DNA of 35,787 bases from a virus, in IMG/VR virus record IMGVR_UViG_3300002053_000010, positions 1 through 35,787 of that record. The stretch is one strand, 5' to 3'. The stretch's first letter is position 1. The number at the start of each line of letters is the position of its first letter. Below, piece after piece: positions 1-35,787 of the stretch. The notes under the pieces are model-generated. The model saw nothing but the letters and a program-made list of their open reading frames with translations. It searched no databases and was not told the DNA's origin. The translations under genes and the position numbers were made by a program.

Positions 1-104
1 CCAGCAAATGTATTTGCATAATATTGAGAATCTCCTATCGTCATTTTTAAATCGATATTGGCCTGTTGCCACCACTGTTGAAAAAGTGTTTGGCTTTGAC
101 GATA
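1..104. repeat. Terminal direct repeat copy A, identical to 35684-35787. Either a circular-assembly overlap or a short terminal redundancy.
   Basis: The first 104 nt (ccagcaaatgtatttgc...ggctttgacgata) match the last 104 nt of the window base for base. The portal reading frame runs straight through it. Confidence 0.95.
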
Positions 105-146
105 GTTTTCGTCCATCTCTTTTTTGAGAGAATAATCAAAGATCAT
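1..146 (-). CDS. Portal protein, 5-prime segment continuing across the circular junction (1-104 duplicates 35684-35787)
   Basis: The portal frame is still open at the window end. After circularisation it extends 34 codons to an in-frame ATG at 146-144 (MIFDYSLKKEMDENYRQSQTLFQQWWQQANIDLK-MTIGDSQYY...). That ATG directly follows the AGGCAAGAAAACCAA element. Which ATG is actually used (146 or 44/35727) is unresolved. Confidence 0.5.
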   Translation of the reverse strand, partial: MIFDYSLKKEMDENYRQSQTLFQQWWQQANIDLKMTIGDSQYYANTFA

Positions 147-161
147 TTGGTTTTCTTGCCT
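146..161 (-). promoter_or_regulatory. 16-mer AGGCAAGAAAACCAAA (sense), copy 1 of 3, abutting the candidate portal start
   Basis: The exact 16-mer also occurs at 7775-7790 and 33405-33420. Here its last A is the A of the ATG at 146. Confidence 0.6.
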
Positions 162-169
162 ATCTTTAT

Positions 170-2560
170 TTAAAAGAAAGAGAGTGCTTTTTGTTTCATT
201 TCTCTTATCTTTTCTGGGGTTAACATTCTTTTTTTATTATCAAGCAATGTCTTATATGCAACACCCAAGTATCTAAATGCATCTGCAAAGTGAGATGACC
301 AATCATGATGTGGCGTAGTACTATAACAATTTTCTTTGCTATTAAATTTCTTATGATAATTTTCTATACATTTCAAGAAAAATTTATTTTTATTTTCATC
401 TATCCAAAGGTATGGAAATAAAGACCTTGCACACTCTATTCCAAATTCTATTTCTGTCTTAGGAATTGTTTCGAATCTAATTCCCAATTCAAACGCATAA
501 TATTTTAATGATTTTCCTATGCTAAGATGGCCAGATTCTATGTCATGAGGTGCATAATGTGTTCCATATATATAATTTTTATTTTGTAAAATCTTTGCAT
601 AATGTGCAAGTCCCTCTCCAGAATTTTCATAAGAATCTATTATTCTTATCTCCTTACCAGAAAATTGCACAAATAATATCGATGTTGAGTCTCCAAATCC
701 TAAATCCCAAAACGTATTAACTTCAAGATTGGGATCATAAGGCAAATTGATAATGCGATTATTTCGTCTAAGTTCGTCAACATATCTTCCATAATAACTT
801 CCTTCAATTCCTTGGTTAAATGAGCAGAAAAACTCCTGTTGAATAAGTTCTTCGCTCATTCCTTCTTCGCGTTCTTTTTGGATCTCTTCTTCTGAAATTA
901 CTTTTGTATCTTCTATAGTTAATTTTTGACAAAACCAATCTGGATTATTCTTTGCCATTACAAATAAATCATATGCCCAGTTGGCACCGCGTGGCGTAAA
1001 ATTAAAGACTGCCCACCCTTTATTTTCACGTAATATTGGGCGAACAAATTCCCACGCATAAGGATCTTGAAGAGAAAATTCAGAAAAAATACAACCAATT
1101 GGGTTGATTCCGACGTTTAATATTTGATCTGTTCCAACGATTTGGATAACACTTCCATTTATAAGCTTTACCTTCATTTCTACAGAGTTTGGCTCTCCAT
1201 CAATTATTCTTTTTGGAATATAATCAAGAAATCTCTTTCCTTGACCATTAATACCGTCCCACAATATTCTTTTTCCCAATCTGGACGTTGGAAAGAAATA
1301 TACGTAGGTACCTACACGGTCAACAAACGCCTGCTTTATAAGCCAATTAAAGCATACAACTTCCTTACCACTATTATGTACAATATAACCATTGGAAATA
1401 AAATTTTTATTATTCTTTATTTCTAAATCATATGTATTACAAAGAGAAGCCCCAGATTCTTTCGGCTTGCTAAATAACAAAATATCCGCATATTTCCTTC
1501 TTTCCCTTTCTTTCATTTCAAGGGCTATTGCTTTATTTCGAATAGATTTTTTTTCGTTGATCTTAATAATATTTAAAAGCCTTTTAACGCTTGAAGCCTC
1601 CCAAATACGAACTGTCCAACACCAATTTCGATCATTATATACAGCACCACACTGTATTCCATGCTTCTTCAATAAATAATAATAATCCCAAGCAAGTGCC
1701 TCACTCTCTCCAATAGATATTTTAATTTCTGCCTTTGGGCGTATATATGTACTTGCCTGCCTTCCTGTCTTTTGACAATATATATTTCCATCGGCCTCTA
1801 TAACTGCAGAAATAAATTCTATAAAAGATTCTTCATTACAACTCCATATGCATTTTGGAATCCTTTTGTCTTTCTTTGTACACCACAAACCCAAATTCAT
1901 TAAACATTCTTTAACCGGATGCTTTATTTTATTTCCGCACTCTCCCTTTGACATTCCTATATCCCAACCATTCCCCTTCACTCTTTCTATTAAATAAACA
2001 GAAGGAAAAAGATCTCTTACCAAAGACATAAAATCTTCTTTAATTAATTTGCTTGTCGTTGTATACTTTGGTTGTTGATATCCATTGCAATATTCATCCG
2101 ATATCATATATCCAATAAAACGCGCCAATTTCGGTATATTTTCTCCACCCAAATTAAGATTAAAATAAGTAAAACACCCCTCTCCGGCATTAAGGTTTCC
2201 AATAGGCTTCCATTTTGGATTAAAATACGAATATGAACATAAAACCCTATGGTCTTTTGTAACTAATAATGATTCGGCTCCATATATCGAATATTCTGAA
2301 CAATAACGCTTTCCATTATAGAAAGAAGAAACAACGGTATCTTTTTCAAGAGAATGTCCATTCCAAGATAAAACAGAATCTCCCTCAGAAACCTCTTGAA
2401 TAAACTTCCAAGAACCATCTGACATAAGAATTCTACTGTTCTCTGCAACACACCTTCGATGCCACACAAGAACAGCTCTTTTACACCCATCATCCATCGA
2501 TTCTAAAAACGAAATTTGATAATCACGCGGAGAGAAATTTGGAAGGCATTCTTCATTCAT
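170..2560 (-). CDS. terL: Terminase large subunit (TerL), interrupted by an in-frame intein. The predicted spliced product is about 436 aa.
   Basis: 796-aa ORF with an ATG at 2560 that overlaps the TerS stop by 8 nt. Joining the exteins gives VLVWHRR|SGKEVV, a terminase-type P-loop. The C-terminal part (DLGFGDSTSILFVQ, HYAPHD, HHDWSSHFADAFRY) is typical of the TerL nuclease region. The gene sits directly upstream of the portal. Confidence 0.93.
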   Translation of the reverse strand: MNEECLPNFSPRDYQISFLESMDDGCKRAVLVWHRRCVAENSRILMSDGSWKFIQEVSEGDSVLSWNGHSLEKDTVVSSFYNGKRYCSEYSIYGAESLLVTKDHRVLCSYSYFNPKWKPIGNLNAGEGCFTYFNLNLGGENIPKLARFIGYMISDEYCNGYQQPKYTTTSKLIKEDFMSLVRDLFPSVYLIERVKGNGWDIGMSKGECGNKIKHPVKECLMNLGLWCTKKDKRIPKCIWSCNEESFIEFISAVIEADGNIYCQKTGRQASTYIRPKAEIKISIGESEALAWDYYYLLKKHGIQCGAVYNDRNWCWTVRIWEASSVKRLLNIIKINEKKSIRNKAIALEMKERERRKYADILLFSKPKESGASLCNTYDLEIKNNKNFISNGYIVHNSGKEVVCFNWLIKQAFVDRVGTYVYFFPTSRLGKRILWDGINGQGKRFLDYIPKRIIDGEPNSVEMKVKLINGSVIQIVGTDQILNVGINPIGCIFSEFSLQDPYAWEFVRPILRENKGWAVFNFTPRGANWAYDLFVMAKNNPDWFCQKLTIEDTKVISEEEIQKEREEGMSEELIQQEFFCSFNQGIEGSYYGRYVDELRRNNRIINLPYDPNLEVNTFWDLGFGDSTSILFVQFSGKEIRIIDSYENSGEGLAHYAKILQNKNYIYGTHYAPHDIESGHLSIGKSLKYYAFELGIRFETIPKTEIEFGIECARSLFPYLWIDENKNKFFLKCIENYHKKFNSKENCYSTTPHHDWSSHFADAFRYLGVAYKTLLDNKKRMLTPEKIREMKQKALSFF
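1373..2452 (-). mobile_element. Intein (360 aa, TerL residues 37-396) with a double-motif LAGLIDADG homing endonuclease
   Basis: It starts with Cys1 (CVAENSRILMSDG) and has block B TKDH. Two LAGLIDADG motifs are present (LARFIGYMISDEY and FIEFISAVIEADGNIY). Block F/G reads NTYDLEIKNNKNFISNGYIVHN, followed by a +1 Ser. Boundary codons checked on the sequence: TGT at 2452-2450, CAT-AAT at 1378-1373, AGT at 1372-1370. Confidence 0.9.
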
Positions 2561-2963
2561 TATTTATTTTTTTTGGTGGATTTTTTCCATAATGAATGAC
2601 ATTTAAAGGAATTGTGCCACTATGTTCTATTTCTTGTTTCTCTTTTTGACCAAGCAAGTTCTTCCCAAGCCAAACAAGCATTGTTGCATTTCCTTCCATG
2701 GCAGATTCTATCTGCCTTCTTCTAAGGCTTTTCTTTAATCTAGCTCTTCCAAGCCTTAAAGAATCCATATATCTATTTTCAATTGTATCTTTGCTACAAT
2801 CAAGCAGTCTTGCTATTTCTTCGGTTATACATCCAATTGCTGCCAAATCTTCTATATCTTTCTCACAAAGTTGTAATTTAGGCCTTCCAACACCAGATTT
2901 ATTTTTTCTTTTTGGTTTCCCATCTTTTAAACTTCTTGATTTTATTTTTTGGCCTTTCTTCAT
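2553..2963 (-). CDS. terS: Terminase small subunit (putative), with an HTH
   Basis: 136 aa. It has a basic N-terminus, an HTH-like DIEDLAAIGCITEEIARLLDCSKDTI, and a GNATMLVWLGKNLLGQ motif typical of small terminases. It lies directly upstream of TerL and overlaps it. The SD is AGGGA, 5 nt before the ATG at 2963. Confidence 0.7.
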   Translation of the reverse strand: MKKGQKIKSRSLKDGKPKRKNKSGVGRPKLQLCEKDIEDLAAIGCITEEIARLLDCSKDTIENRYMDSLRLGRARLKKSLRRRQIESAMEGNATMLVWLGKNLLGQKEKQEIEHSGTIPLNVIHYGKNPPKKINNE

Positions 2964-3270
2964 CTTTTTCCCTATTTTTTAATTGTTCCTCTTTCCATTT
3001 TCTTTTTTCATATGGAACAAATATTTCTTTTAACTTGATTCCTTTTGGAAGAAGCTCTGTATTTATTTTATAGAGAACATAAGAACTATCGAATAATTCA
3101 TCTTCTTCTATTTCTTTCAATTTTTTCAAAGTTCCATCTTTTTTTATAGGTCCTTTTCTTTTAATATTTCCTATAAAATCAATAGCCTCTTTTTCTGACG
3201 GAAAAAATTTTTTAATGAGGTCGTATTGTGATCCAAACATAAAAAGGAAATAATCTGTAGATTCTGACAT
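2899..3270 (-). CDS. Hypothetical protein (123 aa), first gene of the packaging block
   Basis: The ATG at 3270 is preceded by the leader element AACCAAACATCGGAGaaacaccaATG. The 3-prime end overlaps terS by 65 nt in another frame. Confidence 0.65.
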   Translation of the reverse strand: MSESTDYFLFMFGSQYDLIKKFFPSEKEAIDFIGNIKRKGPIKKDGTLKKLKEIEEDELFDSSYVLYKINTELLPKGIKLKEIFVPYEKRKWKEEQLKNREKDEERPKNKIKKFKRWETKKKK

Positions 3271-3278
3271 TGGTGTTT

Positions 3279-3293
3279 CTCCGATGTTTGGTT
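3279..3293 (-). promoter_or_regulatory. Leader/RBS element copy (sense AACCAAACATCGGAG)
   Basis: It lies 8 nt upstream of the ATG at 3270 and immediately 3-prime of the hairpin at 3299-3351. Confidence 0.7.
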
Positions 3294-3298
3294 AAAAT

Positions 3299-3351
3299 GC
3301 GGGATCTTTATAGATTTTCTATTTTCCGTTTAAATTGATGCCTGATCCCGC
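3299..3351 (-). terminator. Structured element or weak terminator: 8-bp GC-rich inverted repeat (GCGGGATC/GATCCCGC) with a 37-nt loop that has an inner ATAGA/TCTAT hairpin
   Basis: The arms are at 3299-3306 and 3344-3351. On the sense strand it starts at the stop of gene 3352-3738 and is followed by ATTTTAA and then the leader element. Confidence 0.35.
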
Positions 3352-3738
3352 CTATTCTTCTTCTTTTTCAATTATATTTTCTACTTCTAGCAGCCTATTA
3401 AAAGGTTGTTTATATTTTTTTAAAAAGCACACAAATTCTATGACAAATCTTACAAAATATACAGGAGCGTCTTTTCCCAAATACTCAAAAGACAAAAAAG
3501 CAAGATAAGAAATATCATCAAGAATATCTGCCCAATCATCTTTTGAAACTGTATTAAATATTTGGAAAAGATTTTCTTTTTCAGCAAAAATATTTACACG
3601 TTTTAGGGGGTAAGCCCTAAATTCCTCTTGTCTCTCTCCCCTTGGCGAAAGCCAAGTTTTTTTTTCTTTATATGAAAACTCAACTGTGTTCTCATATTTT
3701 CCCGCCTCAAATTTAGCTGTCGGATATTTCGTTGTCAT
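3352..3738 (-). CDS. Hypothetical protein (128 aa)
   Basis: The ATG at 3738 shares one base with the recombinase stop (TAATG). No recognisable motifs. Confidence 0.7.
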   Translation of the reverse strand: MTTKYPTAKFEAGKYENTVEFSYKEKKTWLSPRGERQEEFRAYPLKRVNIFAEKENLFQIFNTVSKDDWADILDDISYLAFLSFEYLGKDAPVYFVRFVIEFVCFLKKYKQPFNRLLEVENIIEKEEE

Positions 3739-4850
3739 TATCCTACCAATTCAGCACATGAATTGTTAATAATACTCCCGGCTTCGTAATACCTCATTGC
3801 CGTTGAAACACTTTTGTGAGAGGTCATTTTCATAATGTCGCCAATAGGCTTTCCTTGTTTGGCACCCTCTGTAACAAATCCTCGGCGTAGTGAGTGGGCT
3901 GAAAATTGGTTTTCGTCATAGCCAGCTAGATTTGTTCGTTTCTTTACCATCCTTCTCACGTCATTTCCGGAGAGTGCGCCTCGAATATCTCCACTCTTCC
4001 CAACCGAACGGAACATTGCCCCTTTTTTTACGCCAGAAGCCTCTAGCCAGTCTCTTAACGCCTTGGCGGCCCTTCCTTTGATGGGCTTGTAATCGTCTTC
4101 CCCTGTTTTGTTGGTCTTCGACTCACATAGGTTGTATAGGTAGTCTCCTTCGGATGTCTCTGTGAGATTACACATATCAGCATCGGTTATCTCGCAACGT
4201 CGGCGCCCACCAGAAGAGAAAGCAAAGAGGAGGATGGCTTTATCTCTGACATCAATTAGACGTCCTTTACATGTCAAAAGCATGTCTTCCAGAATGTCTT
4301 TTGTTATTGCTTTTTTCTTTCGCCCCTTCCCTCCATACATCGTCGTAAATCTCTTTAGTAGACGCTTTACCTCTTTATCTCTGCATGGGTTATTTAACTT
4401 GTCGAGTTCAAGACAGACACTTAGTGAGGCTATGCGGCGTTTTATCGTTTCAAGAGAGTGAGTGCCTAGTTTTGACTTGTACCCTTGGTCAACAAGAATC
4501 TTATCAACCTCCGGGTTCATCTCCTCAATATGCTGAATGATGAAGTGTTTTAGGATTCCAACGGTTATCCTGTCTGTTTTAAAGTTGAATCCAATGACTG
4601 AAAGCCATGCTTGCCAATAGACAATGTCCCCGTTAAATGCCCTTTTAGTGTTTTCACTGGTGTAGTCCCTGATAACCTCAAGGCTTCTAACTGCACTGTC
4701 TTTTAAGAGAGTGTTTAACAACCTGGATTCGCCAAGCTTTACAGGTATATAGTTGTTCAAGTCTCTATCTTTGATAAGAGAAAAGGGCATAAAGCTGTGA
4801 GAGGGTTGAATAAGTGCTCCCTCTTTTTTTCTATTCTGTTTTTCCTTCAT
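3738..4850 (-). CDS. Tyrosine recombinase 1, Cre-like (370 aa)
   Basis: The C-terminal catalytic region has SGGRRRCEI (Arg I), AHSLRRGFVTE (H-x-x-R) and HKSVSTAMRYY (His/Tyr). Its layout resembles P1 Cre (WSGHSARVG...VMNYI). It aligns over its full length with ORF 12221-13213. It is visibly more GC-rich than its neighbours. Confidence 0.9.
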   Translation of the reverse strand: MKEKQNRKKEGALIQPSHSFMPFSLIKDRDLNNYIPVKLGESRLLNTLLKDSAVRSLEVIRDYTSENTKRAFNGDIVYWQAWLSVIGFNFKTDRITVGILKHFIIQHIEEMNPEVDKILVDQGYKSKLGTHSLETIKRRIASLSVCLELDKLNNPCRDKEVKRLLKRFTTMYGGKGRKKKAITKDILEDMLLTCKGRLIDVRDKAILLFAFSSGGRRRCEITDADMCNLTETSEGDYLYNLCESKTNKTGEDDYKPIKGRAAKALRDWLEASGVKKGAMFRSVGKSGDIRGALSGNDVRRMVKKRTNLAGYDENQFSAHSLRRGFVTEGAKQGKPIGDIMKMTSHKSVSTAMRYYEAGSIINNSCAELVG

Positions 4851-4999: not shown

Positions 5000-5315
5000 C
5001 GTTTTCTCCTCCATTTATTGTTTTTCTACACAAACATTTCTTTATTTTCTTTTTTTTACAGCAGCCGATTAAATCATCATGAATATTTTTATTTTCATTA
5101 AAAAATGTTACAAGCGCAATCATAAAATCAAGAAGTGCCTGTAATCTTCCGTTCGATCTTTTTTCATAGGGAATAACATTTTCTAGGGCCTCTAATCTTG
5201 TTAAATGACAATTAAAATATTGTTTTAAATATTTTTTTGATGGAATACATTTATATATTTTCGCAAAATCTATCATCGTTTTTTGTATTTCTTTAGCCGC
5301 GATTTCACCAATCAT
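4974..5315 (-). CDS. Hypothetical protein (113 aa)
   Basis: The ATG at 5315 forms an ATGA overlap with the rusA stop. The C-terminus is Cys/Lys-rich. Confidence 0.6.
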   Translation of the reverse strand: MIGEIAAKEIQKTMIDFAKIYKCIPSKKYLKQYFNCHLTRLEALENVIPYEKRSNGRLQALLDFMIALVTFFNENKNIHDDLIGCCKKKKIKKCLCRKTINGGENDAIKKGEK

Positions 5316-6055
5316 ATTGCCTCCATAGAAATTTCTTTATATCTATTTATTTTTTCAATCACATCATGGGATTGTTTTTTTATTTTTGATAACTTTAAAG
5401 ATAGGTCGGACAGAGTACATAATATCGTGGCAATTTCTAAGATTTCTTTCTCTGCCAAATCATAAATTTTATTTTGATCAAAAATCATCGTTGCATTACA
5501 AACTTTTTCTAAAATTTCATTTATCTCATATGGAGAAAAAAGTGAAATTATTTCTCTAACATCTTTTATTATTGTTTTTCTTTCTTCTGAAAATACATCC
5601 ATAATAGTCATTGGTCTGTCTCCATATTTTTTTTTCATGTTAAGATATGTAATTTGATTGTCATTGGCCCAAATTTGTCCTGTAGCGCAATCTAAATAAA
5701 ATTTAGCCAAATTATCTAGGTCACACTTTTTGGGCGGCTCAAGTCCCCAAAAAAGCCTGTTTTTTGCATGATTTGACATGCTTTGAGGAACTTGCATAAT
5801 AAATGTAAAATCAACACAAAAATGTTTTGATTGTAATAATCTAGAAAGCTTTGCCGCTTGTATATGATCTATTCCTTGATAAACCTCTTCAAATTTTTCG
5901 TTTATCTTTTCTTTAACTTTTTTTTTCTCTTTTTTCTGCGGGTCATATGAAAAAATTCTTCCTTTTGCATTAAAAAATCTAGGTCTTTGCTGTGGAATTG
6001 GCGGTCCTTCAAAAATAAATCTCATAATATTTTTCCATCCATTCTCGAAACGCAT
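5312..6055 (-). CDS. rusA: RusA-family Holliday junction resolvase with a C-terminal extension of about 100 aa
   Basis: GPPIPQQRPRF and CDLDNLAKFYLDCATGQIWANDNQI match the RusA motifs (compare E. coli [26 protein letters not shown]). The real start may be the second ATG at 6025 (MRFIFEGPP). Confidence 0.75.
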   Translation of the reverse strand: MRFENGWKNIMRFIFEGPPIPQQRPRFFNAKGRIFSYDPQKKEKKKVKEKINEKFEEVYQGIDHIQAAKLSRLLQSKHFCVDFTFIMQVPQSMSNHAKNRLFWGLEPPKKCDLDNLAKFYLDCATGQIWANDNQITYLNMKKKYGDRPMTIMDVFSEERKTIIKDVREIISLFSPYEINEILEKVCNATMIFDQNKIYDLAEKEILEIATILCTLSDLSLKLSKIKKQSHDVIEKINRYKEISMEAI

Positions 6056-8897: not shown

Positions 8898-8910
8898 AAC
8901 CAAATGGAGG
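8898..8910 (+). promoter_or_regulatory. Shortened leader element variant (AACCAAA-TGGAGG) in front of recT
   Basis: AACCAAATGGAGGacattATG. It is 3 nt shorter than the full core, and the SD GGAGG lies 5 nt before the ATG at 8916. Confidence 0.45.
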
Positions 8911-8915
8911 ACATT

Positions 8916-9632
8916 ATGGAAAAAACACAAGAAATTTCGATTCAAAAAAATGGAAAGAAATCAATCATTCAAGACATTGAAGAGATAAAAAACGTTACAA
9001 AAGCCCTTCTTGAGACAAAACATTATCAAAAAATTGGAGGAGAGGGCGTTTTTGCTATTGTTCAAAAAGCAAAATCCTTGAATATAGATCCAATAGGTGC
9101 ATTAAATGGAGATTTATATTTTGTTCAAGGAAAGGTAGAAATGAGTAGCCAGATGATGTTAAGTCTAATTAGACAAGCTGGACATTCTGTAACGATGGAT
9201 CAAAAAAGCTCTGACACATATGTTATTTTGCATGGAAAAAGAAAAGACAATCAAGATACATGGTCTGTATCTTTTAGTATTGAAGATGCAAAAAAACAAG
9301 GAATATATAGAGGGAATTGGGAAAAGATGCCAAAAACTATGTGTACATGGAGATGTATTTCTATGCTTGGAAGATTTTTGTTTCCAGATGTAATTAAAGG
9401 ATGTTATGTGGAAGGAGAAATACAAGAGATAATAGATACTCCAATAGAAGAAGTGAAAGAAGAGACAATTTCTAAAGAACAAGTAAAAGAATTAGAAGAT
9501 TTAATGAAAGATGATGAAGAAAAAGCAAAAAACATTTTAGATGTTCTTGAAAATGGATATGGAATAACAGAACTAAAGGATATTCCTGTTTCAATATATG
9601 AGAGAATAATAAATATACTATTAAAAAAATAA
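8916..9632 (+). CDS. recT: RecT-family single-strand annealing protein
   Basis: GGEGVFAIVQKAKSLNIDP, VEMSSQMMLSLIRQAGH and MPKTMCTWRCISMLGRFLFPDVIKGCYVEGE fit RecT conserved blocks. It is followed by a YqaJ exonuclease, the classic pair. The start was set to the SD-supported ATG at 8916. Confidence 0.85.
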   Translation: MEKTQEISIQKNGKKSIIQDIEEIKNVTKALLETKHYQKIGGEGVFAIVQKAKSLNIDPIGALNGDLYFVQGKVEMSSQMMLSLIRQAGHSVTMDQKSSDTYVILHGKRKDNQDTWSVSFSIEDAKKQGIYRGNWEKMPKTMCTWRCISMLGRFLFPDVIKGCYVEGEIQEIIDTPIEEVKEETISKEQVKELEDLMKDDEEKAKNILDVLENGYGITELKDIPVSIYERIINILLKK

Positions 9633-9669
9633 TAAAATATTTTTTTAACAAGCCAAAAAGGAGAAAAAA

Positions 9670-9828
9670 ATGAAAGAATATGATACACAAACAAAAAAAT
9701 CTAAAAAAAGTTCATTAAAGCCCCAAGAGACATTAACGAAAGAAAAACAAAAAAATGAAGATGCTTTCATTAAATTGAGCGTTGTTAGAAGAGTTGGATA
9801 TTGCGAAAAGAATTTAAATATTTTATGA
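9670..9828 (+). CDS. Small hypothetical protein (52 aa), not in the ORF track
   Basis: AAAGGAGaaaaaaATG at 9670; sequence MKEYDTQTKKSKKSSLKPQETLTKEKQKNEDAFIKLSVVRRVGYCEKNLNIL. It fills the recT-exonuclease gap. Confidence 0.5.
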   Translation: MKEYDTQTKKSKKSSLKPQETLTKEKQKNEDAFIKLSVVRRVGYCEKNLNIL

Positions 9829-9855
9829 GTGAATCGAAAGATAAATAAAAAATTA

Positions 9856-9870
9856 ACCAAACATCGGAGG
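9856..9870 (+). promoter_or_regulatory. Leader/RBS element copy (ACCAAACATCGGAGG)
   Basis: It is followed by aagatc and the ATG at 9877. Confidence 0.7.
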
Positions 9871-9876
9871 AAGATC

Positions 9877-10719
9877 ATGAAACAAGGCACAAAAGAATGG
9901 CTAGAATTTAGAAAAAATAAAATTGGAGCAAGTGATGCTCCAATAATAATGGAGAAATCTCCATGGAAGACTCCATATCAGCTTTGGCTTGATAAACTTG
10001 GATTGTCCAAAAATAAAGAAACAGAAGGAATGCGCCGAGGGAAAAGACTAGAACCAATAGCTTCTCAGAAATTTACAGAAAAAACGGGAATACAAATATT
10101 CCCAAGAACTATAGTTCACAAAGAAAAAGAATGGATGATTGCTTCATTAGACGGAATGGATTTGTATAAAAAGATTTTAGTAGAAATAAAGTGTCCTAAT
10201 AAAGAAGACCATGAACTAGCAAAATGTGGAAAGATTCCTGAGAAATATTTTCCACAGTTACAACATCAGCTAGAGGTCGCTGGATTGGGTTCTGGATATT
10301 ATTTCAGTTTTGATGGAGAAGATGGAACGATTATTGAATTTGAAAAAGATGAAAATTTTGTAAAAGAACTTGTGAAAAAAGAAGAGATTTTTCTAGAATG
10401 TATATTAACATTTACGCCACCAAGGCTAACATCAAAAGATCGTATAAAACAAACATCTGAGCAATGGAAATATTTAGCAGAAGAATGGATAAAAATCAAA
10501 AAAGAATTGGAAGAAAAAGAAGAAAGAAAAAAATGTATTGAAGAAATGCTTTTTGATATTTGTGGAGAAACAAGCGCAGAGGGAGGCGGAATAAGTATTA
10601 CAAATTATTTTAGAAGAGGAAATGTTGAATATAAAAATATTCCTGAGCTTAAAAATGTTGATTTAGAAAAATATAGAAAGCAGGGATCATTTATTAAAAG
10701 AATTTCAATTTATGGATAA
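9877..10719 (+). CDS. YqaJ-type (lambda Exo-like, PD-(D/E)XK) recombination exonuclease
   Basis: GTKEWLEFRKNKIGASDAPIIM, PYQLWLDKLG, GKRLEP, ASLDGMD, LVEIKCP and YFPQLQHQLEV fit YqaJ motifs. The ORF-track start at 9829 is a GTG upstream of the SD. Confidence 0.88.
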   Translation: MKQGTKEWLEFRKNKIGASDAPIIMEKSPWKTPYQLWLDKLGLSKNKETEGMRRGKRLEPIASQKFTEKTGIQIFPRTIVHKEKEWMIASLDGMDLYKKILVEIKCPNKEDHELAKCGKIPEKYFPQLQHQLEVAGLGSGYYFSFDGEDGTIIEFEKDENFVKELVKKEEIFLECILTFTPPRLTSKDRIKQTSEQWKYLAEEWIKIKKELEEKEERKKCIEEMLFDICGETSAEGGGISITNYFRRGNVEYKNIPELKNVDLEKYRKQGSFIKRISIYG

Positions 10720-12220: not shown

Positions 12221-13213
12221 TTAAAATAGATCCGCTGCAGGATTGTTAAGATTAGATGCAGACTTGTAATAATTCATAGCGATTGTCAAGCTCTTATGTC
12301 CTGTCATATCCATGATGTCTCTGATATTAATATTTCTTCTGCCACCCTCAGTTACAAAACCGTATCTTAAACTGTGTGCAGAAAAAAACTTTTCATCATA
12401 TCCAGCCATTTTAGCTCTTTTTTTGACTATACGGTTGATTTCTTGTGGAGTAAGACCCAAACTACTTATTGACCCGTTTTTTCGTATAGATCTAAATAAA
12501 GGGCCTTTACGTTGATTTAGTGTTTTTAGCCACTTATTTATGCATTCAAAAGCTTTTCCTTTTATAGGAACAAACATTCCTTTTCCTTCTTGGTCAGTTT
12601 TGCTCTTTTCTATCTTATACATACATTCATTTCCCATCATTTTTATATTTTCTATTTTTGCTGAAGATATTTCAGATCTTCTTCTTCCACCAGAACAAAA
12701 ACCAAATAATAAAAGAGCCTTATCTCTTAAATCTATTATCTTATCATCTGAACATGTATCTATCATATCTAAAAGCATTTCTTTTAAGATGGCTTGTCGT
12801 TTTGAAAGTGTAATATTTTTTCTTCTTAATCGTTTTAAAAGTGTAGAAATTTCAACATCATTTAAAGGAAGTTCTATATTCCATTGTTTTAGATAAGTCT
12901 TTAAATTATAAAGCTTTGTCATCATTGTTGAGAATTTCCATTGATAAAGATTTTTCTTAATTCCTTTTTTTATTAATTCATCCTCAACAATTTTTGGCAT
13001 CTCTTCAACATGATGAGAAATGAATGCAATGATATTTTTTTTGAATGACATTTCTTCAAGTTTTATTCCAACAGCTTCACACCAACCAATGAAATATTTA
13101 ACACTAATGTCTATTGATCTTTTTGTATTTTCTGGAATGTAATCTGTTATAACCTTTTTTGACCATTCAGAAATTTTTGAATGATCCAATATTTTCTTTA
13201 AATCTTTTTTCAT
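12221..13213 (-). CDS. Tyrosine recombinase 2, Cre-like (330 aa), paralog of 3738-4850
   Basis: SGGRRRSEI, AHSLRYGFVTE and HKSLTIAMNYY are present. The N-terminal region (ENTKRS...YFIGWCEAVG) also parallels recombinase 1. It is a stand-alone gene downstream of a 300-bp non-coding region. Confidence 0.9.
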   Translation of the reverse strand: MKKDLKKILDHSKISEWSKKVITDYIPENTKRSIDISVKYFIGWCEAVGIKLEEMSFKKNIIAFISHHVEEMPKIVEDELIKKGIKKNLYQWKFSTMMTKLYNLKTYLKQWNIELPLNDVEISTLLKRLRRKNITLSKRQAILKEMLLDMIDTCSDDKIIDLRDKALLLFGFCSGGRRRSEISSAKIENIKMMGNECMYKIEKSKTDQEGKGMFVPIKGKAFECINKWLKTLNQRKGPLFRSIRKNGSISSLGLTPQEINRIVKKRAKMAGYDEKFFSAHSLRYGFVTEGGRRNINIRDIMDMTGHKSLTIAMNYYKSASNLNNPAADLF

Positions 13214-17225: not shown

Positions 17226-18578
17226 CTAACTTATAAGATTTCCAGAAAAGTAAGAAACACATGCGCCTGCCGTCCCTTTTACATCTAATGTTTTACCACC
17301 ACCGCTACCTGTAAAAGAAACGTAAGCTGTATCTGATGCATCCATATCACATATTGCAGTAAGAAGAACCGATCTTGTTTCTGTATCATCTGGATAAAAA
17401 TCAGCAAAATAATCTCTATTAGAAGTTACAATTGTTATATATGAAGCTGTTTGAGTGCCATCCCATCCTTCTATTTTAAGTGATGTAGAAAATATATATG
17501 CTCCCGTAATAGGGGCCGTAAATGTATCTGTAGTATTATTATAATCACCGCCGAAATCAAAATCTTCTGTATCAAATTCGCATGTCCATGTAGTACCATC
17601 TCCTGTTACATTATTATCTGAAGCAGAGTTATGTGCTAAAAAACAAGGATTTAAAGGAAGTGTTCTTTGTCCAGCTGCTGTCATTATAAATCTATCATTA
17701 GTTCCTAATGCGCTTCCTTGAGATATTTTAAATTTATCAGCGTCATCATCATCAACACCTATTCTAAATTCTCCTGTAGTGTTGATATCGAATTGAATAA
17801 AACTATCTCCAGAAGCACCGGGATCTGTTGTTAGTTGCTTCATTTTTGGTGTATCTGAAAAGTCAAGTGTTGGGGCACCAGCAACTCCATCACCATTTGT
17901 TACATCTATTTCATTCGCAGTTCCTGTAATTGTTCTTTGTACCCATGTATCCGCAGCACTTCTTACAGCGATACCTGTTCCTCCAAGTCCTTCTAATGCA
18001 GACAAATCATTAGCAAGAGCAAGTGTTGGATTTCCAGCAACTCCATCCCCATTAGATATAGAAATTCCAGCTGCTGGTACTGCAATAGATCTTTGTACCC
18101 AAGTATCAGCTGCACTCCTAACTGCAATCCCTGTTCCTCCAAGCCCTTCTAAAGCAGCAAGGTCATTTGCTAGTGCTAATGTTGGATTTCCTGCTACTCC
18201 ATCGCCATTTGTAACTGTTATACCTGCTGCAGGTTGGGCAATCGAACGCTGAACCCACGTGTCTGCCGCACTCCTTACAGCTATTCCAGTTCCACCCAAA
18301 CCTTCTAAAGCATTCAAATCATTGGCTAATGCGAAAGTAATTGTTCCTGCACCACCAGTTATTGTAATTCCAGCTGCTGGGGCTGTTAAAGTAGCTGGAA
18401 CCGGATCAACACCAACTGTACTTCCTATTAATAATTGGCCGTCTGTTAAAGGACCAATCATAGTTATTGCGGCAACCCCGTTTCCAACTAAAATAGATCC
18501 ATCAGTTAATGTTGCTCTTCCTGTTCCTCCTAGAGTAACTGGAACAGGAATAGGTAAAGATATAGATGATTTACTCAT
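17226..18578 (-). CDS. Tail fiber / receptor-binding protein B (450 aa) with a C-terminal C1q-like domain
   Basis: The N-terminus is LGGTG...LLIGST. Three tandem 52-aa repeats follow. C-terminal residues 335-367 match the C1q PROSITE-style signature at every fixed position but the last, and the protein ends in YFSGNLIS. Confidence 0.85.
   Translation of the reverse strand: MSKSSISLPIPVPVTLGGTGRATLTDGSILVGNGVAAITMIGPLTDGQLLIGSTVGVDPVPATLTAPAAGITITGGAGTITFALANDLNALEGLGGTGIAVRSAADTWVQRSIAQPAAGITVTNGDGVAGNPTLALANDLAALEGLGGTGIAVRSAADTWVQRSIAVPAAGISISNGDGVAGNPTLALANDLSALEGLGGTGIAVRSAADTWVQRTITGTANEIDVTNGDGVAGAPTLDFSDTPKMKQLTTDPGASGDSFIQFDINTTGEFRIGVDDDDADKFKISQGSALGTNDRFIMTAAGQRTLPLNPCFLAHNSASDNNVTGDGTTWTCEFDTEDFDFGGDYNNTTDTFTAPITGAYIFSTSLKIEGWDGTQTASYITIVTSNRDYFADFYPDDTETRSVLLTAICDMDASDTAYVSFTGSGGGKTLDVKGTAGACVSYFSGNLIS
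17865..18383 (-). repeat. Tandem repeats, 3.3 copies of about 156 bp (52 aa), inside fiber B
   Basis: PAAGIT[VI]TNGDGVAGNPTLALANDL.ALEGLGGTGIAVRSAADTWVQRSIA is repeated at residues 66-114, 115-166 and 167-218, with a partial copy at 219-238. The nucleotide copies are also very similar. Confidence 0.9.
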
Positions 18579-19278: not shown

Positions 19279-21864
19279 TTATTGTAAACCACAAGCAAGC
19301 GATACCAAATGGATTGCAGCAGGAGCACCTCCAGCAGCAAATAAATGATGAATAAATGGAATAACAACATCAGCATTATCAAATGTCATTGCTTGTTCAT
19401 TACTTAGAGCGGCTCCATCAAGAAGATATGAAACAACTCCAGCGGCTGAAACGTTTAATCTAATAGTATGTGTTTGTCCATCCGTCCAAGCATCTGTAGA
19501 ATTAACATAAGTCCATCCAGTACCATTTAGATTTTTACCAGAAATTACTGTGTCTGCATTAGTTGTGGCATGTAATCCTATAACAGCTGCATCAGTATAG
19601 TTTGCAAAAGCTCCATTAGGTGCGCCTTGTAATCTAAAACCTATCCATAATGGATCGGAAGTTCCACAATCAGCAACTGTGAATCTAGCCTCAATAAAGA
19701 AAGCCGGACTTGTTCCAATAGTGAATAAGAATTTAGAAGAATTTTGGTGTCCCCAATAATATTCAGCACCTTCACTATTTGTTAAATCTAGAGAAACTAA
19801 CAAACCAGCATTTTCTAATCTTGGAGCAATAATAGTTTGTCCAGCACCCAAGATAAATTGTTCCATTGTATGACCATCTTGTAGATACATAATATTGTAA
19901 TCTCCAGTAGCACCAGTTGGTGCAGCTCCTGTATTAGCACGAGATTGTAAAATTGGACATACATTAATTTGAGGAACATACATGTTAGTTACATTTATAT
20001 TTCTTCCTGTGATATCTCCATAAGAGTCTATCGTTGAAACTGATGCATTTGAATTATTTCTTATTCCAAAAGTATTGGCACCAATATCATCTCCGAGATC
20101 AATATAAAAATCATTTCCAGCCACACAATTTACTGTTACAGAAGATCCATCAGATACAATAGTTGATTCATCCCACAACCTAATATCAGCTGTGGTATAA
20201 GCAACGCCCGCATTAGCTGGAGTTGTATTATATAAATCAAGTCCATATAACCAATCTGCAATTGCTTGTGTTCCTTGAGCAACACCCAATGCTGCTCTTC
20301 CAGCAGTACCAGCTCCAGCACCAAGACGAGTAGCAACAACACCATACCCATATGCATTAAGAGGTGTAGTATATTCAACAACAGATCCAATACCAGCATA
20401 AATACCTGTTAAAGGAACTGCAGCCGCATCGTCTGTCATATAATATCCTTTAACTCCAAAAGCATATGTTTGAGGAATATCAGCAGCGTCTGTTTCATGA
20501 ATTAAAATTGACCCTTCAACTCCAGCGGCAGTACTAGCTATTACAGAACCATCTACTTGAGTAAGAGTTCCCAAAACACCTAAATCTAATAATGAATTAG
20601 AACCAGCAGCTAAAGTTAATGATCCATCTACAGCTCTCGGTTCATGATTACCATCACCAGCAGATACAGAAAGATTTCCTCTAATACTTGCTAAATAAGA
20701 TGCTCCAGTTGCAGTTGGATCATCAGCAAAACATTGAATAATACCACCATCAGCTGCAAAAGCATTTACACGATAGGTACTATCTCCAGAGGTAACTTTA
20801 GAGAATTTTCCTTCTGCTACATATGCTCTAGTTAATGTTGCTGCTAATGCTGCATTACTTAAAAATTCAACATTTGCAAGTGTAACAGCACCAGCACCAG
20901 CACCAGTAATACATGGATTTGCAGAAGATGTAATAGTTACATTACTAAGACCTACTACTCCAGCAGAACCTTGTGCAAGAGCTGCATTAGCACCTGTTGT
21001 TAAAGTACTTTCTCTTATAGCTAAAGCTGTCGTTCCAGCTAAAGTTATTGTTCCACCAATTGTACTTCCTTGAGTAATAGAAGCAGCACATGCGCCAGAC
21101 AAATTACTTGCACAACTTACACGAGATCCAATAATAACTAATGTTCCACCAACTTGAGTAAGTACATTAGCTCCTGCTCCTACTAAAGAATCAGAAATAA
21201 TAACAGTTGAAGCAGCAATTCTTACACATCCATCTGCAGTAGAAGTTGTATGACAATCATAAATATCAACAGGACCTGTCCATGAAGCACAGTCTACTAC
21301 ATAACCATTCGTACAATTAAATGTACAATTTGTAAAACTTAGTCTTGCAGTACCAGCAGCAGCTGATGTAACGATATCTGTTGCAGATGTTAACTGTAAA
21401 TCTCTAAAGAAAACAGCACCTGTAGCAGGAGGTGTATGAACACCAGTTATAATAGAATATGCTCCACATCCTGTAATAATAAGATTATCGTAAAGAGTTA
21501 AGTTTTCTGTATAAGTCCCAGGTCTTACATAAACTTCTGCATTTGTAGTTCCAGATGCTTGTATTGCATTTATAGCAGCTTGGATAGTTGTAAAATCTCC
21601 AGTGCCATCAGCATCTACTACATATTTACTCATTGGAGCATTACCACCAGCACTTTGAGAAACTGGTTCCCAATTAGCCGCATTTCCAGCTATTGATGTT
21701 AATACCCATACATTATTTGCTATTCTGTCTATCCAGATAGTTCCTATCCGGTGTCCTAAATCGAGTGCAGTTGGTGCCCGTTGAGCCTTTATCACATTTG
21801 GCGGCTCAGGAGCTTCTACACCTACATACGATAAGGCGTTTTGTCCACCAACGAATTCCGACAT
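19279..21864 (-). CDS. Tailspike / receptor-binding protein C (861 aa) with a beta-helix, depolymerase-like central domain
   Basis: It is preceded by the leader element. The N-terminal anchor is RAPTALDLGHRIGTIWIDRIANNVWVL...GNAANW. DGTGDFTTIQAAINAIQASG..VYVRPGTYTENLTL..NLIITG is a pectin-lyase-fold entry motif, followed by long Ala/Gly/Thr/Ser beta-helix-like sequence. The C-terminal region of about 200 aa looks lectin/ConA-like (weak). Confidence 0.85.
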   Translation of the reverse strand: MSEFVGGQNALSYVGVEAPEPPNVIKAQRAPTALDLGHRIGTIWIDRIANNVWVLTSIAGNAANWEPVSQSAGGNAPMSKYVVDADGTGDFTTIQAAINAIQASGTTNAEVYVRPGTYTENLTLYDNLIITGCGAYSIITGVHTPPATGAVFFRDLQLTSATDIVTSAAAGTARLSFTNCTFNCTNGYVVDCASWTGPVDIYDCHTTSTADGCVRIAASTVIISDSLVGAGANVLTQVGGTLVIIGSRVSCASNLSGACAASITQGSTIGGTITLAGTTALAIRESTLTTGANAALAQGSAGVVGLSNVTITSSANPCITGAGAGAVTLANVEFLSNAALAATLTRAYVAEGKFSKVTSGDSTYRVNAFAADGGIIQCFADDPTATGASYLASIRGNLSVSAGDGNHEPRAVDGSLTLAAGSNSLLDLGVLGTLTQVDGSVIASTAAGVEGSILIHETDAADIPQTYAFGVKGYYMTDDAAAVPLTGIYAGIGSVVEYTTPLNAYGYGVVATRLGAGAGTAGRAALGVAQGTQAIADWLYGLDLYNTTPANAGVAYTTADIRLWDESTIVSDGSSVTVNCVAGNDFYIDLGDDIGANTFGIRNNSNASVSTIDSYGDITGRNINVTNMYVPQINVCPILQSRANTGAAPTGATGDYNIMYLQDGHTMEQFILGAGQTIIAPRLENAGLLVSLDLTNSEGAEYYWGHQNSSKFLFTIGTSPAFFIEARFTVADCGTSDPLWIGFRLQGAPNGAFANYTDAAVIGLHATTNADTVISGKNLNGTGWTYVNSTDAWTDGQTHTIRLNVSAAGVVSYLLDGAALSNEQAMTFDNADVVIPFIHHLFAAGGAPAAIHLVSLACGLQ

Positions 21865-25447: not shown

Positions 25448-25945
25448 TTATTTTATATATTCTATTACCACATATGCAGTTGTAAATCCGCTGTAATTAA
25501 AATTGCTTCTCAAAATAACATTTGTATTATCCATTGAAAGCTGAATATGATTTCCTCCTCCTGTCATATCTATATATGGTAATGGAATATATAAAGTTGA
25601 TGGATCTGTTGCTGCTCCATAAATTTTCGTTACAATGGTTGAGGCTGCAATTGTTATTCCATGAGCTACATTTTGTGGATTTACAGCAGTAAAATCATTT
25701 AATCCACCTAAATCAATAACTTTTCTATAGACATCTCTTTTCACTTGATTATTTCCAGCTGTAAACCATTTTTGTGAAATTGCAATCTCAATATCTTCAT
25801 AATTTCCACTTTCTTTTTGATTTAAAACATCGGCTGTTCTTCTTTCTCTTTCTGCTACAACAGATTTAAATAATTCAATTTCTTTTGGAATCTGAAAATC
25901 TACTGGTAATCCTTCTGGAATTGCATTTACTGGAGCATATGTCAT
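25448..25945 (-). CDS. Hypothetical structural protein (165 aa)
   Basis: ATGA overlap with the upstream gene. Confidence 0.65.
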   Translation of the reverse strand: MTYAPVNAIPEGLPVDFQIPKEIELFKSVVAERERRTADVLNQKESGNYEDIEIAISQKWFTAGNNQVKRDVYRKVIDLGGLNDFTAVNPQNVAHGITIAASTIVTKIYGAATDPSTLYIPLPYIDMTGGGNHIQLSMDNTNVILRSNFNYSGFTTAYVVIEYIK

Positions 25946-33427: not shown

Positions 33428-33688
33428 TTAATTTTTATAATCTTGTCTTTTCAATTTTGATTGATCTTCTCTCTCTATTTTATCCTGAATTGCTTTGTAA
33501 TCATTCCCTCTATATTCATTTTTTCCTGTTCCAGATTGTTGTCCATTTTTTCCTTTATCAGGATTCCCGATATTTGGTTTTTCTACTTTGTACATATTTT
33601 CCTCTTGTTTTAATTTGTTTTTTCCAATGGTTTCTCTATATACAAGTGATAATAAAAAAATAATAAAAAATATAATAACAGACTTCAT
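33428..33688 (-). CDS. Small secreted or membrane-anchored protein (86 aa)
   Basis: The N-terminal hydrophobic segment is VIIFFIIFLLSLVY. It has an ATGA overlap with the portal stop. Confidence 0.6.
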   Translation of the reverse strand: MKSVIIFFIIFLLSLVYRETIGKNKLKQEENMYKVEKPNIGNPDKGKNGQQSGTGKNEYRGNDYKAIQDKIEREDQSKLKRQDYKN

Positions 33689-35727
33689 AATGATTCACCC
33701 CGTTCTGTCATTTGACTGTCTTCTTGTATTTGTTGTTTAAGCAGTTGTTGTGCTTGTTGTGTTTCTTCTTGTTTTGATCTTTTCTCTTGTGGAAGTTCTG
33801 TTGTTCTTTCGGCTTCTCTTACATCTTCGCCTATAGCAATAGAAGTATCCGCCGCTTTTATTGATTCTTCTTGTTGTGTTTGTTTTTGTATATTTTGAAG
33901 TTCTAATACAAATTTTAGAAGTTGTATCGTTCTTTCGTCATCTAATTTGGCCAATTCTGCAATAGCTTTCGCATTATCAAGTGCGGCTTGAGCCATATTT
34001 TGAGCTTTCTCAGATTCCCTTTCTGAGAAGAGCCCAACATTTGAAATAGCTCTACTTTGACGCTCTTCAGCAGTCGCAAAATCACTTTGAGCTTTAGCTT
34101 CTGTTGCTCTGGTAAGGAGTGCTTGATATTCCATTTGCTGTTGTTGTTGAACTTGTGCAATTTGTTGTTGCTGCTGTTCTGTTTGGGTAATCGCTTCAAT
34201 AAGTTTATTTTTATTTTGTAAAGTAGACGCCTCCAAAAGCATTTCAGTTGGAATAGGAATTCCAATACCTTTAAGATGAAGAAGCTGTACAAATTGTAAT
34301 TGTTTTTGCGTGGATGTGAGAACGCCCTCTTCGACAGCACAATCATATTTTTGAAAGTCTTGTCTTTTAAATTGCATTGTTGGTTCATCATTTAGAATCC
34401 TCTGAGCTTTTCCAGATCCATAATTCGCCTGTATCAATTCAAGAATCAATTTGCCTGTTGCTTTTTGAGACAATCTTAATCTATCAAATATAGGCTGGAG
34501 GGAAACCAGACCAGCACCCATTCTTAACTGCGTCATAAAACCAGAAGTGTCTGTTCCATCATTTTCACCAAAAAGCTCTTCTGTAACGCCAGCAATTTCC
34601 ATTATTTCTTTATCCATTAATCCTTGCATTTCATACATCGATTGTGGAATGTTCGGCGCTGGAATCTGTTGAATATCAGCTAAAGTTGCATTATCTTTTA
34701 AAAAAAGAGCTCTTCCCTGCCCAGACATAAAAACATCTTCTGGATCAACTAACGCATCTTCTTTTACAATGAAACCACTGTTTATTTGGCTGTCTAAAAT
34801 ATCTAGCATCTTGTTTCGTCTTTTATTCAATTCTATTTGGCTATCTCTAGAATTTCTTACAACACCCATATATCGTGCACCATAATCATCATTTTGAGGA
34901 TAGTGGTAACATAAGAATGGGACATATGGATAACTACTGATTCCATAGGGTTCTTGTTTGTCATATAAAAGATTGTCATTTACAAGAATATTTAACTTAA
35001 TAGTTGGAGATTTTCCTTGGATTTGAGTAATATTTGGATTCATAGATAGAAAAACATCGAGTTTTTCTTCATCTAGGCTTTTTGGAATTTCAGATATTTC
35101 GCCATTCAGTGAATTAAAAAGTTTTTTCGTTGTCTTATAGTCTCTTTTCCAATAATAATCTATCGAATAGAAATCAGTGTTATACATTTGTCTGTTTTCT
35201 GGCATATATAGAAATTTTCCATCTGTTTGTTTTGTCATTGGTTTGATAGAATTAATTTCTGTAGCCAGGTTTTTGGGGAATAAAGACATTATTTGTTCTT
35301 TTGTAAGATAACGTCGTTGCCAGATCCATTCACAATCTGATAGATCTGGTTCCCTCCAATAAGGATCCATTATAAATTGGTTATAATCTACTTTCGAAGC
35401 CTTAATATCTCCGTTTTCAGGATCTTGACGATAATCAACCCAAATATTTAAAAGATTTAATCCTGTAATTAAAGAGCCTTCAAAAGTTTCAGAAATTTTA
35501 TCGTAAATATTTTCATAATTACAAAGCCACATCATGATTGCAGTAAGTTGATCACAAGTATCTTGATCAGAATTTTCAATTGGAATTGCTTGCATTACAT
35601 GTCTATGTTTTCGTTGATATCCAGAAATTAAATTGATAATTCTTATGATTTTATTAAATTGAAGAAGTTTTTGATTCTTGAATCCAGCAAATGTATTTGC
35701 ATAATATTGAGAATCTCCTATCGTCAT
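33685..35727 (-). CDS. Portal protein (680 aa from the ATG at 35727; up to 714 aa if the junction-spanning ATG is used)
   Basis: The call rests on size, its position immediately after terL in the circular map, and a Gln-rich helical C-terminus (QTEQQQQQIAQVQQQQQMEYQALL) reminiscent of portal barrel extensions. The frame is open to the window end. Confidence 0.75.
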   Translation of the reverse strand: MTIGDSQYYANTFAGFKNQKLLQFNKIIRIINLISGYQRKHRHVMQAIPIENSDQDTCDQLTAIMMWLCNYENIYDKISETFEGSLITGLNLLNIWVDYRQDPENGDIKASKVDYNQFIMDPYWREPDLSDCEWIWQRRYLTKEQIMSLFPKNLATEINSIKPMTKQTDGKFLYMPENRQMYNTDFYSIDYYWKRDYKTTKKLFNSLNGEISEIPKSLDEEKLDVFLSMNPNITQIQGKSPTIKLNILVNDNLLYDKQEPYGISSYPYVPFLCYHYPQNDDYGARYMGVVRNSRDSQIELNKRRNKMLDILDSQINSGFIVKEDALVDPEDVFMSGQGRALFLKDNATLADIQQIPAPNIPQSMYEMQGLMDKEIMEIAGVTEELFGENDGTDTSGFMTQLRMGAGLVSLQPIFDRLRLSQKATGKLILELIQANYGSGKAQRILNDEPTMQFKRQDFQKYDCAVEEGVLTSTQKQLQFVQLLHLKGIGIPIPTEMLLEASTLQNKNKLIEAITQTEQQQQQIAQVQQQQQMEYQALLTRATEAKAQSDFATAEERQSRAISNVGLFSERESEKAQNMAQAALDNAKAIAELAKLDDERTIQLLKFVLELQNIQKQTQQEESIKAADTSIAIGEDVREAERTTELPQEKRSKQEETQQAQQLLKQQIQEDSQMTERGESL

Positions 35728-35787
35728 TTTTAAATCGATATTGGCCTGTTGCCACCACTGTTGAAAAAGTGTTTGGCTTTGACGATA
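35684..35787. repeat. Terminal direct repeat copy B, identical to 1-104
   Basis: See copy A. Confidence 0.95.

Follow-up and report, generated by a model that had tools for sequence, protein, structure and literature searches.

A large terminase gene interrupted in its ATP-binding loop

The stretch of viral DNA analysed here, which we call the window, comprises 35,787 nucleotides (positions 1 to 35,787 of IMG/VR record IMGVR_UViG_3300002053_000010) and contains a gene for the large terminase subunit (TerL) whose ATP-binding loop is very probably interrupted by an intein. The TerL precursor is specified by a single uninterrupted minus-strand open reading frame (ORF) at 170..2560 (796 amino acids plus a stop codon), read in its translated frame as an N-extein, an intein, and a C-extein; all positions within this gene given below are on the minus strand. 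The N-extein (2453..2560; TerL residues 1–36) ends in VLVWHRR and, as judged by alignment with intein-less TerLs and a model of the spliced protein, supplies β-strand 1 and the first half of the Walker-A loop. The 360-residue insert (1373..2452; TerL residues 37–396) was assigned from profile matches, an AlphaFold2 model, and Foldseek comparisons as a Hint splicing domain split by a LAGLIDADG endonuclease domain. The C-extein (170..1372; residues 397–796 plus the stop codon), delimited by the starting points of tblastn matches and by phrog_2 and Foldseek matches, carries the +1 nucleophile Ser397, the Walker-A Gly-Lys, the remainder of the ATPase, and the nuclease domain.

At the junctions, TerL residue 37 is Cys (codon 2450–2452), residues 395–396 are His-Asn (codons 1373–1378), and residue 397 is Ser (1370–1372). 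Excision of the insert gives a 436-residue protein with the joint VLVWHRR + SGKEVV, and from the sequence we compute masses of 92.5 kDa (precursor), 51.1 kDa (spliced TerL), and 41.4 kDa (intein). A preliminary description, made from the letters of the window alone, had placed an intein with all of its hallmarks at TerL residues 37–396 and had predicted products of about 50 and 42 kDa; we reproduced its coordinates and motifs exactly, and the computed masses are close to those it predicted. A protein identical to the TerL of the window (P0001) has been called on four public contigs.

The insert is absent from most homologues

A tblastn search of the 796-residue protein against 50,697 phage records returned 799 matching records, 30 of which were listed. 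Among the matches listed, all start at residue 390–398 of the query, nearly all of them at 397 or 398, and no record among the 799 spans 80% of the query. The matches include freshwater uncultured podoviruses, Alteromonas phage ZP6, and Pelagibacter phages of the HTVC010P type. When aligned with four intein-less phage TerLs (alignment A1), the insert forms one clean 360-column gap between the invariant HRR and xGK, in agreement with the boundaries proposed earlier. Among the best 120 metagenomic homologues, 18 carry an insert at the identical point and ~100 read continuously through the site as VWHRR(A/S/C)GK(E/D). We also collected 25 related loci from IMG/VR; of the 24 that could be read at the site, 23 are continuous across it and a single locus, L007, has an insert. 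The 360 residues thus represent an insertion into TerL.

The contig X1 is identical to the window over positions 1–3300, without a single difference, and the same sequence was assembled in independent public sequencing runs and in JGI contigs; it is therefore not an assembly chimera. Metagenomes from marine sediment (2017) and one from seawater (2021) contain the sequence of terL with its intein, and metagenomes from marsh (2025) contain part of it (runs X1–X6). With its intein allele unchanged, the phage has a wide geographical or temporal distribution.

Excision would restore a terminase Walker-A motif

Spliced TerL matches phrog_2, the terminase large subunit family, over residues 7–409 (E 5e-25); in a Pfam search of the same protein, no terminase family was matched. 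A family profile built from the spliced protein and 33 intein-less relatives and searched against the PDB matches the P74-26 TerL ATPase (4ZNI, E 2e-6) and T4 gp17, and the profile alignment places the family's R-R-a-G-K-e opposite R-Q-S-G-K-S of P74-26. When the spliced protein is modelled with AlphaFold (pLDDT 79.6), a strand (residues 28–33), a loop (34–38), and a helix (39–54) form the classic strand/P-loop/helix arrangement. Foldseek matched this model to the full-length TerLs of D6E, T4, HK97, and Sf6, to P74-26 TerL, and to the isolated TerL nuclease domains of G20c, SPP1, and P22. The model and these matches indicate that the spliced product would be a phage large terminase with a continuous Walker A, consisting of an ASCE ATPase and an RNase H-like nuclease. 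The earlier proposal that joining VLVWHRR to SGKEVV restores a Walker-A-like loop is supported by sequence, profile, fold, and comparison with homologues.

The junction lies between R36 and S37 of mature TerL and is followed by G38-K39, so that the Walker-A loop reads W-H-R-R|S-G-K-E and is split two residues N-terminal of the invariant Lys39. With 41 kDa of protein inserted in it, the P-loop should be unable to bind nucleotide, and DNA packaging should therefore depend on splicing, which we regard as sound reasoning rather than a demonstration. Kelley et al. drew the same conclusion, that packaging needs splicing, for mycobacteriophage TerLs (PMC5050341).

The Walker A of this family is itself unusual. 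In the window, its second part (1361–1372) ends in G-K-E rather than the canonical G-K-S/T, and G-K-E or G-K-D is present in 119 of the 120 best homologues (the site of P0102 was not read); HTVC010P has G-K-T. The deviant P-loop is thus family-wide.

Splicing motifs and predicted fold of the insert

We located the splicing motifs in intein numbering and judged their invariance in an alignment of 11 same-site inteins, which occupy the same point in related terminases (alignment A2). The block A nucleophile Cys1 (TerL Cys37; 2450..2452) is invariant. Block B contains TKDH (T65-K-D-H68; 2249..2260), in which H68 is invariant and D67 nearly so. Block F reads YDLEI (residues 341–345; 1418..1432), with an invariant Asp342, and block G, NGYIVHN (residues 354–360; 1373..1393), ends with penultimate His359 and terminal Asn360, again invariant. 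This C-terminal splicing region is recognised by NCBIfam TIGR01443 (intein_Cterm) at 18.7–20.7 bits, above its cut-off of 15.6.

The LAGLIDADG homing-endonuclease domain extends approximately from residue 101 to residue 317 (1502..2152), as delimited from the secondary structure of the model and from domain-level Foldseek matches. LAGLIDADG motif 1, LARFIGYMISDEY (residues 109–121; 2090..2128), retains the catalytic Asp119, with the following Gly replaced by Glu, and motif 2, FISAVIEADGN (residues 213–223; 1784..1816), contains Asp221-Gly222, which are invariant in the family. In all, C1, H68, D119, D221, G222, D342, H359, and N360 are invariant across the same-site inteins, and the +1 residue is Ser or Cys in 18 of 18 same-site alleles, Ser397 being the residue in the window. 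Judged by its sequence, the insert appears to contain all of the defining features of a class-1 intein, and its intact catalytic residues make it likely to be splicing-competent.

An AlphaFold2 model of the insert, computed from the 11 same-site inteins, has a mean pLDDT of 90.4 and a pTM of 0.90. Between Hint blocks B and F, its secondary structure consists of helix-strand repeats in a pseudo-dimeric α-β-β-α-β-β-α pattern. Foldseek returned full-length matches to TliVMA (7QSU; E 1.8e-15, TMq 0.69), PI-PfuI (1DQ3), and PI-SceI (1VDE), with intein homing endonucleases as a group matching at E-values of 1e-15 to 1e-12, TMq of 0.53–0.72, and sequence identities of 12–16%. The LAGLIDADG part gave domain-level matches to I-Tsp061I, E-DreI, I-DmoI, I-AniI, and I-OnuI, and the Hint part matched the mini-inteins Mtu RecA, Ssp DnaB, and Npu DnaB as well as Hedgehog Hint domains. 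The insert is thus predicted to have a Hint fold, and its model matches both the Hint and the LAGLIDADG domains of TliVMA, PhoVMA (7QSU, 7QSS, 7QST), PI-PfuI (1DQ3), and PI-SceI (1VDE, 1LWS). The host enzymes of the VMA inteins likewise carry them in the catalytic ATPase subunit, although the host protein and the insertion site differ from those in the window, and the insert is shorter, at 360 residues, than PI-SceI and PI-PfuI (454–537 residues).

Taken together, these features make it very probable that the insert is a genuine class-1 intein (Cys1...HN/Ser+1) with a double-motif LAGLIDADG domain, placed in frame in the TerL P-loop. In the mechanism that we propose, terL would be translated as the 92.5-kDa precursor with its ATP-binding loop split by the 41-kDa domain. 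Splicing would then begin with an N-S acyl shift at Cys1, assisted by the Thr and His of block B, and would proceed through trans-esterification to Ser+1, cyclisation of Asn360 assisted by His359, and a final O-N shift, to yield the 51-kDa TerL with a continuous HRRSGKE loop and the free 41-kDa intein. We infer that splicing takes place in this manner from the conservation of the residues involved.

For annotation, this terL should be read as N-extein plus C-extein: gene callers report a 796-residue protein with weak intein matches, and the spliced protein has no Pfam terminase match. For protein engineering, the intein is a further candidate splicing module, flanked by Arg at –1 and by Ser-Gly-Lys at +1 to +3.

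Relation to known terminase inteins

Phage terminases are often targeted by inteins (PMC4760082, PMC2677866). Mycobacteriophage inteins reside in TerL more often than in any other protein, and the commonest insertions there, TerL1-a and TerL1-b, lie in the P-loop; the TerL inteins tested in reporters splice efficiently, and one P-loop example cleaves an empty allele (PMC5050341). The preliminary description had noted that P-loop inteins are known from the terminases of other phages, and the literature confirms this (PMC5050341, PMC4760082). Like the intein of the window, TerL1-a and TerL1-b are sporadically distributed inteins of the Walker-A loop, and the class-1 ones carry LAGLIDADG endonucleases (Kelley et al., 2016; PMC5050341). 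TerL1-a, however, separates the invariant Lys from the next Thr and TerL1-b lies one residue away, whereas the intein described here is inserted at RR|SGK, two residues before the Lys. It occupies the same loop at a different allele site and is not a member of the TerL1-a or TerL1-b alleles. The host proteins also differ, as the TerL family of the window comprises relatives of those of Pelagibacter phage HTVC010P and Alteromonas phage ZP6; the two groups are set apart by the site and the host TerL. The phages with TerL1-a and TerL1-b have actinobacterial hosts, whereas those of the window are marine.

The element is thus a divergent marine addition to an established pattern in which phage packaging motors are targeted by inteins at their ATP-binding loop. 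It leaves the current understanding of inteins and terminases unchanged and is an ordinary example of a well-known selfish element.

A sporadic same-site family of probably mostly vertical descent

A word-indexed homology search with the intein alone gave no match at E ≤ 1e-3; relatives were obtained with the full-length query and by exhaustive HMMER searching. Same-site inteins are present in P0002, P0003, P0005, P0007–P0016, P0027, P0051, P0092, P0112, and L007, with more distant examples in P0121–P0138. They share the insertion point RR|C...HN|[S/C/T]GK, are 332–384 residues long, have the same set of motifs, and align over their full length. With HMMER run exhaustively on 1.84 billion representative proteins, 520 relatives were obtained at E ≤ 1e-3, the best of which match TerL-like proteins at residues ~33–67 to ~400. 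In distant relatives (P0133, P0135, P0136, P0138) the same RR|[S/T]GK spot is occupied in quite different terminases, and this spot, which precedes the classic K|T site by two residues, is thus in use across several TerL families.

The closest exteins, those of P0004 (77% identity) and P0006 (66%), are both intein-less. The same-site carriers are 43–59% identical to the window in their exteins and 33–40% in their inteins, and the intein value is below the extein value for every relative. A neighbour-joining tree built from exteins places the window together with P0004 and P0006 and puts P0002 and P0003 each within a set of intein-free sequences; the copy in the window is the only intein found in its own extein sub-clade. 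This sporadic distribution is as expected of a mobile element. Intein and extein identities are correlated across all pairs (r = 0.72), and a search among same-site pairs for recent horizontal transfer, in which the intein would be more similar than its host gene, found no case. Because intein identity lies below extein identity and the two are correlated, the history agrees, at the depth sampled, with descent that was mostly vertical and accompanied by losses. The composition of the intein (GC/GC3 0.328/0.244) is close to that of the C-extein (0.328/0.234). This match, the identity correlation, and the absence of any intein closer than its host gene are in keeping with long residence, and the intein of the window looks like an isolated, old, compositionally ameliorated branch that has been inherited vertically.

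We infer a history of homing from this distribution: now, or at one time, inteins of this family would spread when terL alleles that are empty at this site are cut and recombinational repair copies the intein in. L005, the contig of the closest relative, offers a candidate target: its empty site is identical to the spliced junction of the window at 35 of 42 nucleotides and has Ser at +1. The phage encodes a recombination set of its own, with a RecT-like annealase, a YqaJ-like exonuclease, and a RusA resolvase (8904–10719, plus strand; 5312–6055, minus strand). Such machinery would repair an endonuclease break by copying in the intein during co-infection.

Most intein-free alleles have Ala at +1. 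Such alleles would be immune and their invasion lethal, since the invading intein could not splice, and the same +1 barrier has been discussed for actinophage terminases (bioRxiv 10.1101/2025.01.02.630785). A minority of empty sites have Ser (P0004, P0055, P0072, P0093, P0108, P0119) or Cys (P0071, P0077, P0099, P0106, P0111, P0116) at this position; these may have been left behind when an intein was lost precisely, or may be alleles open to invasion.

Relatives in this TerL family (P0051, P0073, P0090, P0119, P0122, P0124, P0128) carry inteins at at least four distinct sites, namely the P-loop RR|xGK, FNF|TPRG, QQEYY|CSF, and the nuclease-domain site HDWSSH|xDA, and P0124 (1422 residues) has three inteins within one TerL. 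All TerL inteins surveyed in mycobacteriophages lie in the ATPase domain, whereas this family also has sites outside it.

State of the homing endonuclease

Several observations weigh against the reading of the insert as a class-1 intein with a homing endonuclease. In profile searches, the insert scored below the curated thresholds of Pfam Intein_splicing (PF14890; E 4e-7, insert residues 10–360, 30.3 bits against a gathering score of 35.8), Pfam LAGLIDADG_3 (PF14528; E 6e-4, 20.5 bits against 22.5), and TIGR01445 for the N-terminal region (17.6 bits against 24.5, with a significant E-value). The check for Hint and LAGLIDADG_3 domains proposed in the preliminary description thus gave significant E-values with the Pfam cut-offs narrowly missed, and an InterPro search alone would be equivocal. 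The His position of block F is occupied by Lys, at a position that varies within the same-site family. In the contigs of four runs that cover positions 1–3300 of the window, no joint skipping 1373–2452, and thus no intein-free allele, was found, although contigs drop rare variants and the evidence is accordingly weak. The intein also stands apart within its family, with no more than ~40% identity to any relative among the best 120 homologues. Finally, LAGLIDADG motif 1 ends in DE (G120E), whereas 16 of the 17 other same-site members have Gly at that position, and the intein is altered at 16 of the 71 positions on which at least 15 of 17 same-site relatives agree, including G120E, E111R, and both F130Y and N132T in the QQPKFTN box. 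Some of these alterations could impair the endonuclease or slow splicing.

Because motif 1 ends in DE and 16 of 71 conserved positions are altered, endonuclease activity should not be assumed, and the earlier view that everything is intact and presumably active holds for the splicing residues but not for the endonuclease. An explanation that we take seriously, while rating its chances somewhat below even, is that the intein remains competent to splice and has a dead or dying homing endonuclease and is no longer mobile. Its persistence would be due solely to the rarity of precise loss and to the destruction of the P-loop that imprecise loss would cause. The departure of motif 1 from the DG of the family and the altered endonuclease positions are in keeping with such immobility, as are the lack of any same-site intein more than ~40% identical among the best 120 homologues, or more than 36% identical among the HMMER relatives from 1.84 billion representatives, the intein-free state of the closest TerL relatives, which leaves no trace of recent spread, the fully ameliorated composition, and the Ala at +1 of most empty alleles, which would make invasion lethal. 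Against it, the full-length domain is kept with both catalytic Asp residues and a confidently predicted fold, the divergent same-site members P0003, P0010, and P0027 have similar substitution counts, and the endonuclease part is not more diverged from its relatives than the Hint/splicing part (mean identities of 35.6% and 30.3%, respectively), a pattern unlike that of relaxed selection on the endonuclease alone. Substitutions in the endonuclease thus do not prove decay, and its sequence leaves the chances that the enzyme is active roughly even. The suggestion that the intein might mark gene flow among relatives fares poorly: without a close intein relative and with the closest TerLs intein-free, it marks no recent transfer and is of little use for this purpose.

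Other explanations for the insert

The intein contains 14 Cys residues (3.9%) compared to 0.8–2.2% in 16 of 17 same-site relatives, the remaining one, P0005, having 3.6%; Cys averages ~1% in 14 other ORFs of the phage. This unusual richness, together with a temperate phage of marine sediment, marsh, and seawater, suggests a reading in which the intein is kept as a conditional switch on DNA packaging, for example a redox-sensitive one, and in which splicing, instead of being purely selfish, serves as a post-translational checkpoint. Disulfides at Cys1 or nearby Cys residues would then hold TerL as an inactive precursor until conditions shift. We consider such a role very unlikely.

It is more improbable still that the 360 residues form an integral domain that is never excised, such as an exapted Hint/LAGLIDADG fold serving as a DNA-binding module, and that the 92-kDa protein is the functional terminase. 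The Walker-A loop is broken by the insert between strand 1 and helix 1, the closest homologues and most others function without it, and the residues that act in splicing, the +1 nucleophile among them, are all conserved in the same-site family, where there would be no reason to keep them in a protein that did not splice.

An origin outside protein splicing, as an intron with an in-frame ORF, a bacterial intein-like (BIL) domain, or an assembly chimera, is hardly credible even though the best PDB sequence matches, which are weak, are to the Tetrahymena BIL2 domain (E ~1e-3): we rejected the intron because no Rfam family, group I and group II introns included, reaches threshold anywhere in the window and the frame is open through both junctions (P ~7e-14 for 360 stop-free codons by chance at the genome composition of 33% GC), the chimera because identical sequence was obtained in independent runs and JGI contigs, and the BIL domain on fold and anatomy, since the full-length fold match is far better to intein endonucleases than to BIL or Hedgehog domains and the insert has a terminal HN with Ser+1, a conserved catalytic insertion site, and an endonuclease domain, none of which is, to our knowledge, typical of BIL domains.

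Genome context

The first 104 nucleotides of the window are repeated exactly at its end (1–104 = 35684–35787), which represents either the closed circular assembly or a terminal repeat of a phage genome of 35,683 bp. The intein resides in a complete ~35.7-kb temperate tailed phage with a P22-type portal, found in marine sediment and seawater. The small terminase subunit gene (2553..2963, minus strand; phrog_309, E 5e-8) overlaps the start of terL by 8 nucleotides, and the portal gene (33685..35727, minus strand; phrog_156, E 2e-77) lies directly downstream of terL on the closed circle. On L006, another contig with the same TerL, the gene directly 3′ of terL encodes 714 residues and matches PF16510 (P22_portal).

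A tyrosine-integrase gene (3738–4850, minus strand; Pfam Phage_integrase, E 1e-15) lies between the RusA and terminase genes and has a GC content of 0.43 (peak 0.47), compared to 0.29–0.31 in the flanking genes. At the corresponding position, contig L005 has other genes, including one with a weak ParB_N-like match, and no integrase match is on record there. This integrase module seems to have been acquired recently. A second integrase gene (12221–13213, minus strand) has a GC content of 0.29, normal for the genome.

Among the remaining ORFs, one of 745 residues (25942–28179, minus strand) has weak similarity to tail proteins and, at residues 596–650, a strong match to the Pfam ubiquitin-activating enzyme E1 FCCH domain (E 7e-16). 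An 861-residue ORF (19279–21864, minus strand) has a short pectinesterase-like match and is probably a β-helix tailspike. A second local GC peak (17751–18500; 0.43–0.45 compared to a genome mean of 0.335) falls inside a structural or tail-fibre-like ORF (17226–18578).

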